Below the pieces are notes generated by a model. It was not told the origin of the DNA and did not search any database. It saw nothing but the letters and a program-made list of their open reading frames with translations. This document shows, one piece after another, positions 8,485 to 16,249 of a stretch of DNA of 64,000 bases. Source of the stretch: a bacterium (GTDB taxonomy: Bacteria; UBA10199; 2-02-FULL-50-16; JAJFLM01); NCBI GenBank assembly GCA_965216315.1, contig CBDCFN010000016.1, forward strand, positions 768,001-832,000, given 5' to 3'. Both the position numbers and the translations under genes were made by a program. Position 1 is the first letter of the stretch. Each line of letters starts with the position of its first letter.

Positions 8485-8511
8485 TCTTCGGCAGGGGAGA
8501 GAAAAAGTTGC
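8485..8511 (-). promoter_or_regulatory. Shared promoter-like motif GCAAC-N15-CCGAAGA
   Basis: 8 nt upstream of ATG 8476; same spacing as four other copies. Confidence 0.75.
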
Positions 8512-8572
8512 AATTCCGGAATCACCTTTTAGAAATAGCGCATTAAACCCCTGAAACCTAAAGGGATTCGTT

Positions 8573-9865
8573 TTAGGCCGGTGGGGCTGGATTGCGAAAT
8601 AAGGCGCCGAGACGACCACTGTGCGCATAGCGGGCGAGGCTGGCTTCGAGGGCGGTGACCGGGAGTCCTTCCCAGCCCCGAGGGATGAAGAGGTAGTCCC
8701 AGCCCTTAAAACGGCTATCCAGGTGAAAACGCAGATCGTAGGACTCGGCGAGACGTGCGGGGCTGCGGTCGAGCAGGAACTCACGGCCGACCGCGCGATC
8801 GCCGCTCGTGAATTCCGTCAGCTCCCAGGCATGCCGTATGCTAAAGAGTCGCTGCTCGTCGTCCGCTGTCATCGGAATGCCCCGCTCCCGCAAGTGTTCA
8901 GCCAGGCGAATCAACATCACCTCACGCGTCGTCTCATCGGCAAAATCGAAACCCATTCGCGGCCACGCCCAACGCCCGACCTGTTGCGCCGTCAGTGAAA
9001 AATGAGGGTAGTCCAGTTGGTGCAAGAGGCTCAAGTAGCGCTGCGTTGCCCTCCGTCCTATTCCGAGACCGTGATTCTCACTCTTGGTTTGGCGACGGTC
9101 ATCTGCATAATCGAGAGCATAACGGTTGCTGTGGGCGCTACGTGGAAGCTTGTCCGCATCAATGGACATGAAGAAACGATGGAACTCCCCGATGCTTGCT
9201 TCCGTGCTCGAGTCAATGATGCCGGCGAGATCCAGGGAATATTTGCGTAGATAAATACCTAACGATGTCACACTGTATCCGGGGATATCCAGCTGACAGC
9301 CTGCTTGTATTAGATCATAGGGGACGGCGCGACCAAAAAAACGCCAGGCATCTCGTTCGAAACGTGCGGCGTCGAATTTTTCGGGCTTGCCAAGGACTTT
9401 GTATTGGATTGTTTCAATCGGTTCGCAGGTTCGTTGAAGCAAGCTCTGTGTCATCTGTCGCAGGGAAACCTCGGTAAAATGAGATGACGAAGGAGATGCC
9501 GGTTGGGCTTGAGCTTGCCTGAGTCTCGTGGAGACATTTTGATAGCGCTCTAACGGAACACTATCAGTCAAGACAGTTTCCAGTAGAGGGGTCTTGTCTT
9601 CGACAAAGAGGGTGAGTTCTTCGGGATCGGGAAGTCTGGCTTCGACATGGGCGACGATACGGTGGACATGGTCCGCCAAGGCCACGTGGAGGCGACGCAG
9701 ATCGTTGTTGTCATCGATTCCTTCCATCAATGTGATCCCAGCGCGGTACTGATCGATGAGCGAAGCGCTCGCAATCCCATCACGCAGGGGTGTGACGGCC
9801 GAATGAGCAGCGAGGAGGCCCGTGCAATTCAATAGTCCTGTTGAGCTGAGTCCAAAAGTCACCAT
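8573..9865 (-). CDS. Orphan protein with GNAT-like core (array member 2)
   Basis: 430 aa; NHGLGIGRR...VGRWAWPRMGFDFADETTREVMLIRL matches member 1 WPRFGFDFADTITRDTMLIRF. Confidence 0.7.
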   Translation of the reverse strand: MVTFGLSSTGLLNCTGLLAAHSAVTPLRDGIASASLIDQYRAGITLMEGIDDNNDLRRLHVALADHVHRIVAHVEARLPDPEELTLFVEDKTPLLETVLTDSVPLERYQNVSTRLRQAQAQPASPSSSHFTEVSLRQMTQSLLQRTCEPIETIQYKVLGKPEKFDAARFERDAWRFFGRAVPYDLIQAGCQLDIPGYSVTSLGIYLRKYSLDLAGIIDSSTEASIGEFHRFFMSIDADKLPRSAHSNRYALDYADDRRQTKSENHGLGIGRRATQRYLSLLHQLDYPHFSLTAQQVGRWAWPRMGFDFADETTREVMLIRLAEHLRERGIPMTADDEQRLFSIRHAWELTEFTSGDRAVGREFLLDRSPARLAESYDLRFHLDSRFKGWDYLFIPRGWEGLPVTALEASLARYAHSGRLGALFRNPAPPA

Positions 9866-9873
9866 GGAGTGGT

Positions 9874-9900
9874 TTATCGATCATTTATGCGAAAGGTTGT
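9874..9900 (-). promoter_or_regulatory. Shared promoter-like motif ACAAC-N15-TCGATAA
   Basis: 8 nt upstream of ATG 9865. Confidence 0.75.
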
Positions 9901-9923
9901 GGCCTAAACGTGAGATCAAAGTG

Positions 9924-13790: not shown

Positions 13791-13841
13791 GAGGTATAAG
13801 TGCCGCTGGCAGCTACAGAAGTCAATGGACCCTGAAATTTG

Positions 13842-14315
13842 TTAGTAGCTCTTTTTGTCAGGACGAGCGGACCATTCTTGAAGCAACTGGAAGCTTTCAT
13901 CCTCCATAAAGCCACCTTCGACTACAATTTCACTCTTGCCCAGCTGTTTCATGTCTTGCGCGGAAATATTCAATTCATGAAATCCCGCGGCGCGCGCCGC
14001 GGCAATATCAGTCCCATAGACAATTTTATCAAGGCGTGCCCAATGACAGGTGCTAAGACACATGGGGCACGGTTCACAGGTGGTATAAATCATGCTTCCC
14101 GAGAGGTCTATCGTTTGGAGTTTTTGGCAGGCGATACGAATAGCAACGACTTCAGCATGTGCGGAAATATCCGTATTGGCCCAGACTTGGTTGTGTTCGC
14201 AGGCGATGACCTGGCCTTGTTTAACGATGCAGGCACCGAAAGGGCTCTGTCCATTGGTTACGCCGACGCGCGCCTTCTCGATGGCCAATTGCATGAAGTA
14301 TGAATCAGTTTTCAT
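13842..14315 (-). CDS. Zn-dependent nucleoside/guanine deaminase
   Basis: PFGA, HAE, CEPCPMC. Confidence 0.9.
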   Translation of the reverse strand: MKTDSYFMQLAIEKARVGVTNGQSPFGACIVKQGQVIACEHNQVWANTDISAHAEVVAIRIACQKLQTIDLSGSMIYTTCEPCPMCLSTCHWARLDKIVYGTDIAAARAAGFHELNISAQDMKQLGKSEIVVEGGFMEDESFQLLQEWSARPDKKSY

Positions 14316-16117
14316 TAAATACCCGCCGAGTCCGAGGCGGATAACTTGAAAATTCCGACGGCTTCTTCATCCGATTTAAAGGTATGTTCATAGCAGATAA
14401 TCGTTGTCGGGGGGATTTTCGCCAAAAATAACGGCCAAAACAGGCCACCATCAATTTCGATGGGACCTGTATATACCGTCCCTTTAGGGACAGTCACTTG
14501 GCGCCAATCGTATTGCCCATGTTCGATGCCACCGTTCAGCTCATCCAGGTAAGGAATCCGCGGAAAGATCGGCTTACCGCCGAGATCTTGTGAAATCGTG
14601 TGGGCTTGTTGACTGAAGTGAGGCATGACTTGGTGTGCCGAATTTTCACCAAACAATCGGTTGCCCAGCTGGCAAACGAGAATGTTGACTTCATCATTGG
14701 GTGTTAAAGTCAGCATCGTTCCAATTCTCTGGATTTGCGTGTTTTCGAGGAAGCCCGTGTCAAGAGCATTACCGTGATAGGCCTCAAAGCCTTCACGGAG
14801 TGCCGCGCGAACATTCCAAAAATTGGTATCTACCAGTTCAACTTCAATTCCGGCTTGTCGCAACCATTGCCCAATGTAACGCCCGAGCGGGTGGGCGCCG
14901 ACAATCAACACGCCGGAGCGTTCCCCTTGCGTTACCCGCAATATTTTTGCCAGCACGCCGGCGGGGAGGCCTTGCAAAATAACCGTCGTAGCGATGACCA
15001 GATAGGCCAAGTTTTCGAGCTGATAGGCATCCGTATGCCCCGTATCAGTAAAGATTAAGGTTGCCAGTGAAGCCGTTGAGGCGGCCACAATGCCTCGTGG
15101 TGCCATTAAGGCAAGAAAGAATTTTTCGCGTTTTCGCATTTGAGTGCCGGCGAGGGAAATGAAGATCGAAACAGGTCGAATAAGCAGGATCATGACGCCT
15201 AAAAAGATCCATTCATTTTTCCCGATAGCAAAGACGGCTTTAATGTCGAGTTGAGCGGCAAGTAAGATAAAGAGAAATCCAACGATCAAAGTTGTTAAGG
15301 TCGCCTTAAACTCCGTAATTTCTTCACGCTGATCCAGTGGCCCGTGAGCCAACACCATGCCGGCCACAACGACAGAGACGAGGCCTGAGTGAGCAACAAT
15401 TATGTGGGCTGACTCAAATGAGAGGAGGGCGCCGCCAAGGATGATAAGATTGATCGTTTCCTTGGAAACGGAACCTCCCCACTTCAAGAAAAAGCGCATG
15501 ATCCATCCACAGGCGAGTCCAATTACAGTGCCGACGCCTAAGATTTTGAAAAACTGGATCAGTGTCAGCCAAAGAGAGCTTTCCTCGGCTAAGACGAATT
15601 CGAGGATCAAGATGGCGGAGACGGCACCGATAGAATCCAAGAGGATGGATTCCCAATGGAGAACGGTGGCGACTCGTTGTACCAAGGGGACACGTTTGAG
15701 GATCGGGCCGATGACCGTCGGTCCCGTAACGATCATGAGGGCCCCAAAGATAAAGCTGTAGCGCCACGGCAAGTCGACGATGGTGGCCGCTGCGACCGTG
15801 GCACCGACAAAAGTGATGATGGCCCCCACCGTTAACAGGCGCCGAATCGGTTTGGTCATGGTCTTGATCTGCGTGGGAATCAGATGGAGTCCGCCCTCAA
15901 AGAGGATGATGGCCACCCCAAGCTCAATCGTTGTCGAGAGCCCAAAGCCAATGGCATCAGGTTGGATAAACCCGCCAAAATGAGGTCCGAGCAGGACACC
16001 TGTGCTCAAGAGGAAGAAAATACTCGGGACCTTGAGCTTTTCAGAAAACAGCTGACAGAGGGCGCCTGCGGCCAGGGCCAAGACGACCGTCTGCATCATT
16101 TGTTCGGAACCGGCCAT
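14315..16117 (-). CDS. Cation:proton antiporter (NhaP-like) with TrkA-N domain
   Basis: ILFEGG, VTGPTVI, APRGIVAAS; C-terminal Rossmann-like IVGA. Confidence 0.9.
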   Translation of the reverse strand: MAGSEQMMQTVVLALAAGALCQLFSEKLKVPSIFFLLSTGVLLGPHFGGFIQPDAIGFGLSTTIELGVAIILFEGGLHLIPTQIKTMTKPIRRLLTVGAIITFVGATVAAATIVDLPWRYSFIFGALMIVTGPTVIGPILKRVPLVQRVATVLHWESILLDSIGAVSAILILEFVLAEESSLWLTLIQFFKILGVGTVIGLACGWIMRFFLKWGGSVSKETINLIILGGALLSFESAHIIVAHSGLVSVVVAGMVLAHGPLDQREEITEFKATLTTLIVGFLFILLAAQLDIKAVFAIGKNEWIFLGVMILLIRPVSIFISLAGTQMRKREKFFLALMAPRGIVAASTASLATLIFTDTGHTDAYQLENLAYLVIATTVILQGLPAGVLAKILRVTQGERSGVLIVGAHPLGRYIGQWLRQAGIEVELVDTNFWNVRAALREGFEAYHGNALDTGFLENTQIQRIGTMLTLTPNDEVNILVCQLGNRLFGENSAHQVMPHFSQQAHTISQDLGGKPIFPRIPYLDELNGGIEHGQYDWRQVTVPKGTVYTGPIEIDGGLFWPLFLAKIPPTTIICYEHTFKSDEEAVGIFKLSASDSAGI

Positions 16118-16222
16118 ATTCGCGCCACGTTATCGAAAAAGTTGACCGAAGTCACCCGTTTTCAAGTATTTACGAATGCAAAAAAATGAGTCATTTTAGT
16201 GGCTTATCTGGAAAGCGAATCC

Positions 16223-16249
16223 GCAACAATTAACGGCTCTGACCGATGA
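16223..16249 (+). promoter_or_regulatory. Shared promoter-like motif GCAAC-N15-CCGATGA
   Basis: 30 nt upstream of ATG 16280; an AGGAGA RBS lies between. Confidence 0.7.

Follow-up and report, generated by a model that had tools for sequence, protein, structure and literature searches.

Promoters read by the flagellar-type sigma factor sigma-28 (FliA) are the closest described counterparts of the element analysed here, a two-box motif that precedes five genes without a recognised protein family in a 64,000-nucleotide (nt) stretch of bacterial DNA (positions 768,001 to 832,000 of contig CBDCFN010000016.1, assembly GCA_965216315.1; this whole stretch is called the window). According to passages of PMC2859248, the published sigma-28 consensus is TAAAGTTT-n11-GCCGATAA and the aer transcript starts 6 bp past the octamer. 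Passages of PMC12784957 give the Pseudomonas aeruginosa fliC promoter as (-36)TCTAAAG(-30) and (-15)GCCGATAA(-8), and describe how residues D66 and R97 of P. aeruginosa FliA read the -10/extended -10 region, while S224 and Q228, in the helix SESRVSQLH, read the -35 box. Across these two excerpts, documented sigma-28 starts lie 6-7 nt past the octamer. Of the 140 attack-phase promoters mapped in Bdellovibrio bacteriovorus, 92 contain TTAAG-N16-CCGATA (Karunker et al. 2013, excerpts of PMC3627812). In Chlamydia trachomatis, chromatin immunoprecipitation sequencing (ChIP-seq) assigned only hctB and tsp to sigma-28, both with promoters resembling the E. coli consensus (excerpts of PMC12282069). 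For Myxococcus xanthus, a review describes a type III secretion system (T3SS) named T3SS* that mediates contact-dependent killing of prey (passages of PMC10849154).

On the sequence data, we consider it probable that the five window sites are promoters of one alternative-sigma regulon, that P0001, the only FliA/WhiG-like sigma factor of the genome, is their reader, that a class of the resulting transcripts is leaderless, and that the products are T3SS substrates.

Five window sites and a genome-wide motif

The first-pass annotation, made from the letters of the window, had proposed five CAAC-N15-YCGAWNA sites, and each of them is present exactly where it was placed (Table 1). Over the window the pattern occurs seven times, compared with 0.70 expected, and none of 100 dinucleotide-preserving shuffles reached seven. 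The two further occurrences (28511 on the plus strand and 39271 on the minus strand) lie inside or antisense to coding regions, have no gene downstream and are compatible with chance; the latter, which is also a matrix match, is either a chance match or an antisense start. An additional matrix match at 22828 (minus strand, 13.9 bits) likewise has no downstream gene.

We analysed the motif across the genome (G000; 2.96 Mb in 16 contigs, 51% G+C, 98% complete). With its 15-nt spacer the pattern has 157 matches, compared with 24-74 for spacers of 11-14 and 16-20 nt. A 28-nt matrix, iterated and applied at a threshold of at least 13.5 bits, gave 332 matches in the genome and 31 in the reversed genome used as control, so that the frequency of the motif is above background rather than equal to it; the five window sites score 15.3-22.0 bits on the refined matrix. 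Sixteen matches are copies of one tandem repeat (C16:684-691 kb) and were removed, leaving 317 sites. The unit of this repeat (C16:684000-691000) reads GACAACTG(T/C)CC(G/C/A)GCCGATCCGGCGAAGA, and its 16 matches are repeat copies rather than independent promoters. The refined consensus of the 332 sites is (C/A)(G/A)CAACTTT-N11-G(C)CGA(T)(A)(A), with C, G and A nearly invariant; written as octamers it becomes GCAACTTT-N11-GCCGATAA, which equals CAAC-N15-YCGA. The strict form GCAAC-N15-CCGATAA was found in all 31 related genomes, which represent 17 families, at 5-52 copies each, compared with 0-2 for the reversed pattern.

A set of this kind could also arise by chance, through base composition, or if genes had recently been duplicated along with the DNA in front of them, and it is true that three of the five window genes are paralogous and that a single tandem repeat supplied 16 of the genome matches. 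We give this explanation virtually no weight, because the shuffles fall short of the window count, enrichment is seen only at the 15-nt spacer and the reversed control is so low. Moreover, the paralogs are only 18-30% identical and their spacers are unrelated, 193 of 269 downstream proteins are singletons, and the motif is kept across the 17 families. The same figures bear out the earlier suggestion that selection has acted on two boxes, as opposed to duplication. We therefore take the five window sites to be real promoters, belonging to a predicted genome-wide set of about 300 sites that would serve more than a tenth of the genes. In one region (C16:2161000-2206000), a run of at least 14 genes has a separate site before each gene; many of these have a shared extended upstream box (TTTCCGCAACTTTCGCAAA) and long leaders, and the genes include several small paralog families and have no Pfam matches.

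We then compared the genes behind the window sites with their neighbours. A Pfam family is present in 48 of the 51 motif-less open reading frames (ORFs) of the window and in none of the five motif genes. Their description as five orphans thus holds as far as families are concerned, but the five are not independent, as the proteins of 780, 430 and 539 amino acids (aa) are distant paralogs (18-30% identity). These three are part of a five-member family, one member of which is a GGDEF fusion. A word-indexed search of 5.8 billion proteins with the 430-aa protein returned only itself, and relatives of its 780-aa paralog were found in 4 of the 31 genomes, G000 included. Structure prediction of the 430-aa protein from a four-paralog alignment was poor, with a mean predicted local distance difference test (pLDDT) score of 47.5, and an Atlas search with it returned unnamed clusters and one cluster with an acetyltransferase family in 20% of its members. 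The window paralogs share a core, GxGIGRRATQR, that may be GNAT-like. The statement that the motif was not noticed before housekeeping genes is correct within the window (0 of 51 other scanned ORFs) but fails genome-wide, where UvrA, PanD and malic enzyme genes carry it.

No terminator-like sites were found between the four tandem window genes, and sigma-70-type promoters and terminators around the five genes were below the chance count, with none at gene starts. As each gene has its own site, separate transcription of each is plausible.

A FliA/WhiG-like sigma factor as candidate reader

Compared with sigma-28 promoters, the matrix consensus has the -10 octamer GCCGATAA and the 11 nt between the -35 and -10 octamers, but not the -35 box TAAAGTTT. 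Only AA and TTT are shared in that box, with GC instead of TA and C instead of G, and the canonical form TAAAG-N15-CCGATAA occurs only twice in the genome.

The sigma-70-family inventory of the genome consists of RpoD, an RpoH-like factor, two extracytoplasmic function (ECF) factors and one FliA/WhiG-like factor, P0001; a sigma-54 is present besides. The best NCBIfam model for P0001 is FliA_WhiG (TIGR02479; E 1.2e-38, 133.1 bits). Pfam detected Sigma70_r2 and r4, and r3 was not detected at E <= 0.001. Its top PDB matches, 6pfj_A and 6pfv_A (E 3e-24), are deposited only as 'RNA polymerase sigma factor', and the next are FliA chains 9wsf, 9wsm and 6pmi and WhiG chain 7lq4_A, with residues 26-240 aligned. 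P0001 thus combines a group 3 architecture, defined by regions 2, 3 and 4 without region 1.1, with FliA or WhiG as nearest solved relatives, and appears to be either a divergent FliA/WhiG member or a member of a sister group. All 31 relatives have a single ortholog of it, as do 91 of the 93 genomes available for the phylum, including all 63 of high quality, a distribution that leaves no sigma-less control group within the phylum.

We mapped the DNA-reading residues of P. aeruginosa FliA onto P0001 via the PDB alignment, using an inferred offset of +5 in chain numbering with which all five residues named in the paper fit. D77 and R108 align with D66 and R97, and the -10-reading residues are thus conserved. 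At the -35-reading positions, Ser is kept (S226 for S224) and Gln is replaced by Arg (R230 for Q228). The region 4.2 helix reads SKSWTSRLH in P0001 and SESRVSQ(L/I)H in FliA and WhiG, and the form LSKSW(T/V)SRLHAR is invariant at 46 of 47 related loci whose overall identity is 57-87%. Retained -10 readers together with a changed -35 helix predict an unchanged -10 box and a changed -35 box.

Two other kinds of reader have to be considered. Either of the two ECF (group 4) sigma factors, encoded at C16:1659626 and C16:2109922, could be the one that reads the sites. ECF promoters have an 'AAC' -35 box and a 'CGT' -10 box, and AAC-N16-CGA resembles ECF consensus sequences; furthermore, CGCAACTTTT precedes the ATG of the second ECF gene in the same arrangement, but with a different -10 box. 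However, homologs of the two factors (E <= 1e-10) occur in 19 and 12 of the 31 relatives, whereas the strict motif occurs in all 31. Five genomes lacking ECF genes were checked with Sigma70_r2, and G004 and G026 showed only RpoD and the FliA-like gene. These two genomes carry 52 and 21 strict sites, respectively, and being motif-rich without another alternative sigma-70-family factor they disfavour an ECF reader. ECF factors are usually autoregulated, yet the motif is missing in front of both ECF genes (best scores -0.2 and 2.9 bits), and it was found upstream of no sigma gene of G000. No ECF factor was therefore found that both co-occurs with the motif and is autoregulated. Finally, the complete 8-nt -10 box is the sigma-28 octamer given in PMC2859248 passages. 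Taken together, an ECF reader is very unlikely indeed. The element before the second ECF gene (C16:2109890-2109921), which shares the -35 box and the spacing of the regulon motif, reads CGCAACTTTT-N-GCATCTAA in full, ends 4 nt before the ATG and scores 2.9 bits; it could be that factor's own promoter.

Alternatively, RpoD might read the motif as a lineage-specific second promoter class, or the motif might be an operator at which a DNA-binding regulator acts. Besides the FliA-like factor, RpoD alone of the sigma-70 family was present in every genome examined, and about 300 sites is a large number for an alternative sigma factor. Nevertheless, the rpoH-like gene has a canonical TTGACA-N17-TATAAT upstream, the region 4.2 sequence of RpoD is standard, and the motif is strand-specific and bipartite, with its spacer fixed at 15 nt. 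The fixed short distance to start codons and the pyrimidine-purine start-site signature described below fit a promoter and not an operator, and the -10 octamer is that of sigma-28. We regard this explanation as very unlikely. P0001 is most likely the reader of the motif, by elimination and by the identity of the -10 octamer, since G004 and G026 still carry the motif with only RpoD and the FliA-like factor. The divergent sigma28-like factor postulated in the first-pass annotation is thus supported by the -10 octamer and spacing, by the single FliA/WhiG-like sigma and by the mismatch between ECF and motif distributions.

P0001 is located inside the sole T3SS cluster of the genome, which contains one FHIPEP gene. 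The gene order near the sigma gene is FHA/YscD-like, SctJ, sigma, then FliG-like, SctL, SctN, SctO and FliK/SctP-like, and the cluster continues with FliM- and FliN-like, FliO, SctR, SctS and SctT genes. This order is conserved in relatives, where the FliG-like gene is found at 44 of 47 loci and SctJ at 32 of 47. The association of FliA/WhiG factors with flagellar genes and FlgM was not found for P0001, as the gene sits in a non-flagellar T3SS cluster; the Flagellin_N, Flg_bb_rod, hook and FlgM families had no match in the 98%-complete genome. The anti-sigma candidates adjoining the sigma gene, orf162, orf119 and orf151, matched no Pfam or NCBIfam family, and orf119 and orf151 are not conserved (0 and 1 of 47 related loci). 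Across the 47 related T3SS clusters (470 kb), 18 motif matches compare with 7 in the control, which is no enrichment.

Some features of these clusters deserve mention in their own right. At locus L008, SctJ is preceded by the conserved small orf117 and orf183 and by a gene for a TPR protein (L008:2005-3459), and orf162 lies just past the sigma gene (L008:6407-6895). The C-termini of orf183 and orf162 may resemble needle and inner-rod proteins, but Pfam returned no match for them even at E <= 5, and we do not claim this assignment. At L023, L024, L025, L027, L033 and L035, a site of 17.8-25.1 bits lies about 150-250 nt upstream of the sigma gene on the opposite strand and points away from it (for example, L025:5842-5869). 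No ORF of at least 70 aa was found within 200 nt downstream of the sites at L024, L025, L033 and L035, and those at L023 and L027 are followed by an 84-aa ORF at 121 nt and a 215-aa ORF at 36 nt, respectively. Such a site might be the promoter of a small RNA or of a small-protein gene.

Leader lengths and N-termini of the predicted products

We examined the distance between the motif and the start codon. In four of the window sites, the ATG follows the motif end by 8, 8, 10 and 10 nt; the fifth gene has a 30-nt leader with a Shine-Dalgarno sequence. Genome-wide, the first ATG of a frame of at least 70 codons lies 5-11 nt downstream at 78 of 317 sites, compared with 2.5 expected at random positions, and the modal distances from the -10 box to the ATG are 7, 6 and 10 nt. 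A looser class, with any start codon 4-11 nt downstream, comprises 101 of 317 sites (23 expected). Shine-Dalgarno-like words were found in 11 of these 101 close-start genes and in 41 of 97 genes with leaders of 21-56 nt. A pyrimidine directly precedes the ATG in 64 of the 78 genes, compared with 57% of all first ATGs (p = 6e-6), in keeping with the usual pyrimidine-purine preference of transcription start sites. Ordinary leaders are the norm in this genome, as GGAGG peaks 4-9 nt before starts and TATAAT-like boxes have no comparable peak but, at most, a small rise 8-9 nt ahead of start codons. In the leaderless class, but not in the leadered one, the -10 box is followed by 5-7 nt of G+C-rich sequence (often GGGCC).

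Given that documented sigma-28 starts lie 6-7 nt past the octamer, the 6-7-nt class should be strictly leaderless. Leaderless mRNAs would be expected from roughly one quarter to one third of all sites, four of the window's five among them. The layout recurs in G010, a genome of another taxonomic family, where two homologs of the window family keep sites (23.7 and 23.4 bits) 9 nt before the start codon at a protein identity of only 30-34%.

The N-termini of the leaderless class are largely uncharged. The median position of the first charged residue (Asp, Glu, Lys or Arg) is 27, compared with 4 in 2400 background ORFs, and 57 of 78 leaderless products have none of these residues before residue 20, compared with 202 of the 2400. 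Enrichment of Ser, Ala, Thr and Leu goes with a 3- to 9-fold depletion of Glu, Lys, Asp and Arg. An N-terminus of this kind is present in all five window proteins and, genome-wide, in 161 ORFs, of which 87 lie at most 120 nt behind a site. The feature is also present in 47 of 158 leadered genes. Sec-like N-termini are limited to 5 of the 78 leaderless products.

A Pfam family was found in 22 of 80 sampled regulon proteins. Among the 40 top leaderless genes, nine have one, the families being patatin-like lipase, pentapeptide repeats, calcineurin-like phosphoesterase, GGDEF, HAD, FGE-sulfatase, methyltransferase, cupin and DUF7790. Among the 40 top leadered genes, 13 have one; the families represented are two DUF4423 regulators, two LamG lipoproteins, a hybrid kinase, a cyclase-STAND protein, HlyIII, TSP3 repeats, NAGPA, an Xre-like protein, UvrA, PanD and malic enzyme.

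From their composition, we infer that the uncharged Ser/Thr/Ala/Leu-rich N-termini would serve as a T3SS export signal. Another explanation accepts the promoters but ascribes these N-termini to a different export route or to a constraint of leaderless translation, the regulon being a life-stage programme; we hold this to be an appreciable possibility, though not the expected one. The regulon does include lipoproteins, DUF4423 regulators, a histidine kinase, UvrA and PanD, the T3SS structural genes lack the motif, and FliA of Bdellovibrio controls surface proteins, proteases and many unknowns (excerpts of PMC3627812). Against it stand the embedding of the sigma gene in the T3SS cluster, with the FliG-like neighbour at 44 of 47 related loci, the occurrence of the feature in leadered genes, which shows that it is not tied to leaderless translation, and the lack of the positive n-region and hydrophobic core of Sec signals in nearly all N-termini. 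Patatin-like lipase, pentapeptide-repeat, phosphoesterase, GGDEF and methyltransferase types, all present among the products, are also common among injected effectors.

Several observations weigh against our proposal of a P0001-driven regulon of T3SS substrates. The 133.1 bits of P0001 on FliA_WhiG are below the curated cut-off of 189.6 bits, a FlgM-like anti-sigma factor was not found in the genome, and no strong site was found before T3SS structural genes, here or in the 47 related clusters. The -35 'AAC' with the 'CGA' core of the -10 box also resembles ECF promoters. The 9-11-nt class (30 of 78) lies farther from the -10 box than the documented 6-7 nt, and its mRNAs may have 2-4-nt leaders. 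In G023 (400 kb), 31 sites compare with 6 in the control, but only 5 of the 31 are leaderless-like (0.42 expected); in G001, the closest ortholog of the 780-aa gene has no site and lies directly behind another gene. About 10% of the matrix matches are expected to be false, and gene starts were taken from crude ORF rules and not from a gene finder. As to the products, 21 of the 78 in the leaderless class do not have an uncharged N-terminus, and the leadered class includes Sec- or lipoprotein-like proteins and the housekeeping genes UvrA, PanD and malic enzyme.

The window contains further genes apart from the motif set. Beside the SctU/FlhB-family gene (Table 1) lie genes for a Ser/Thr kinase with PEGA domains (35011-36885, minus strand) and for an FHA(YscD-like)-GGDEF protein (34072-34962, minus strand). 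At 4004-5846, genes for an MbnB/TglH/ChrH-family enzyme and, after it, a DUF2063/NGO1945-type protein form a pair that is characteristic of peptide-modification loci. Two long genes have no motif: an 853-aa ORF without a Pfam family (54614-57175, plus strand) and a gene for an 860-aa protein with RTX calcium-binding repeats (57991-60573, minus strand).

Table 1. Promoter-like sites, the genes behind them and related features (window positions unless a contig is given)
Feature	Position	Strand	Details
Promoter-like site TGCAACTTTTTCTCTCCCCTGCCGAAGA	8485..8512	-	20.1 bits; pattern match 8485-8510; 8 nt from last base to ATG at 8476
780-aa gene, no Pfam family	6134..8476	-	N-terminus MLTLNTLSLGLQTGTSSLLASGA...; first charged residue is position 27
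Promoter-like site CACAACCTTTCGCATAAATGATCGATAA	9874..9901	-	22.0 bits; pattern match 9874-9899; ATG at 9865, 8 nt on
430-aa gene, no Pfam family	8573..9865	-	N-terminus uncharged
Promoter-like site CTCAACATATCAAATGCCTCTCCGATAA	10786..10813	-	19.2 bits; pattern match 10786-10811; ATG at 10775, 10 nt on
283-aa gene, no Pfam family	9924..10775	-	N-terminus MYSSAFTTGSLLAASSG...; paralog at C16:34314
Promoter-like site CGCAACTTCAATGAATTATGACCGAATA	12476..12503	-	15.3 bits, lowest of the five; pattern match 12476-12501; ATG at 12465, 10 nt on
539-aa gene, no Pfam family	10846..12465	-	N-terminus MGAFFVHSNLISNGMQAMMMLASSG...; distant paralog of the 780-aa gene
Promoter-like site CGCAACAATTAACGGCTCTGACCGATGA	16222..16249	+	18.4 bits; pattern match 16224-16249; 30-nt leader with AGGAG before ATG at 16280
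198-aa gene, no Pfam family	16280..16876	+	N-terminus MIVANQGLMTASALASAALSLPYIK...; sole leadered member of the five
Extra matrix match	39271..39298	-	16.6 bits; antisense within ribosomal protein S2 gene; no downstream gene
SctU/FlhB-family export-gate gene	37005..38090	+	Bac_export_2, E 1.3e-112; no motif; about 430 kb from the main T3SS cluster
P0001, FliA/WhiG-like sigma factor	C16:350583-351407		275 aa; only one in the genome

Proposed regulon and comparison with known systems

We infer the transcription starts, the sigma dependence and the independent transcription of the genes from DNA sequence. The closeness of the -10 box to the start codon, the size of the set and the location of the sigma gene in the T3SS cluster had escaped the first-pass annotation. 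In the proposed mechanism, the P0001 holoenzyme would start transcription on the A of the ATG or no more than a few bases from it and so produce leaderless mRNAs, the products of which, mostly lineage-specific and uncharged over their first 20-30 residues, would be T3SS substrates. Made together with the secretion apparatus, the sigma factor would switch on these substrates and a wider surface and regulatory programme, as flagellar FliA does; P0001 would then be a late-gene switch downstream of apparatus expression. A global programme, comparable to the attack phase that FliA drives in Bdellovibrio, is suggested by the breadth of the leadered set. Control might be exerted via a secreted, as yet unrecognised anti-sigma factor. 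A bolder idea is that the FliA checkpoint was rewired to the injectisome throughout the phylum, with a T3SS-encoded sigma-28 paralog, about 80 or more leaderless mRNAs, coupling to an export signal and fast-evolving effectors; we put it forward only tentatively and regard it as rather doubtful.

The related records are metagenome-assembled genomes labelled Deltaproteobacteria, UBA10199 and similar, and the phylum is known only from metagenomes. For this uncultured phylum, the motif marks about 300 predicted promoters that can be put to the test, names their probable regulator and singles out about 90-100 candidate secreted proteins, the majority without a known family. It would represent a natural change of sigma specificity in which -10 reading is kept and -35 reading altered, with paired amino-acid and DNA changes, and it would tie together a flagellar-type sigma factor, a non-flagellar T3SS and leaderless translation, with a bearing on how T3SS substrates are expressed and recognised. 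The motif may further serve as an annotation aid for start codons and candidate effectors in 91 or more genomes. Literature searches (UBA10199, by abstracts; leaderless FliA and type III secretion; sigma factors of non-flagellar T3SSs in Myxococcales) returned no description of the regulon.

The system most closely resembles the class 3 FliA promoters of E. coli, Salmonella and P. aeruginosa, with which it shares the -10 octamer, the 11-nt gap, the sigma family and the D66/R97 equivalents (passages of PMC2859248 and PMC12784957), and, as in the flagellar FliA hierarchy, the sigma gene lies among secretion-apparatus genes. It differs from them in having the -35 box GCAACTTT and not TAAAGTTT, the helix SKSWTSRLH with Arg as the Q228 equivalent, about 300 sites compared with a few dozen, and many sites that abut the start codon; flagellin, rod and FlgM genes were not found here. 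The motif resembles ECF (group 4) promoters in the AAC of its -35 box and in a -10 core that contains CG and lies about 16 nt farther downstream. Unlike these, it has the full sigma-28 -10 octamer, the ECF genes were not found in many motif-bearing relatives, and they have no autoregulatory site.

Three further systems offer partial parallels. In Bdellovibrio, also of a former 'deltaproteobacterial' lineage, a sigma-28-type factor with the same -10 core has expanded to a global regulator of surface proteins, enzymes and uncharacterised genes. Unlike the bacterium studied here, Bdellovibrio is flagellated and its -35 box, TTAAG, is near canonical; its promoters were mapped by 5'-end sequencing, whereas those described here are predictions. 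The excerpts of PMC3627812 on which these points rest report no Bdellovibrio sigma gene in a non-flagellar T3SS cluster such as that of P0001, and the word 'leaderless' is absent from PMC3627812 and PMC12622784. Chlamydia, according to excerpts of PMC12282069, is likewise a non-flagellated, T3SS-dependent bacterium that has kept a sigma-28-family factor for a developmental or late programme, but with two targets, compared with the roughly 300 predicted sites and changed -35 box found here. The T3SS* of M. xanthus is also a non-flagellar T3SS of a lineage once placed in Deltaproteobacteria, and the cluster described here retains FliG-, FliM-, FliN- and FliO-like genes; unlike what we propose for this cluster, the passages of PMC10849154 on T3SS* name neither substrates nor a sigma factor dedicated to that system. 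Sigma-28 promoters, an expanded sigma-28 regulon in Bdellovibrio and a sigma-28 in the non-flagellate, T3SS-dependent Chlamydia were thus already known. What is new here is the combination of a re-specified -35 box and helix, a phylum-wide sigma gene within a non-flagellar T3SS cluster, a regulon of this predicted size, and a putative leaderless layout coupled to a candidate N-terminal signal.

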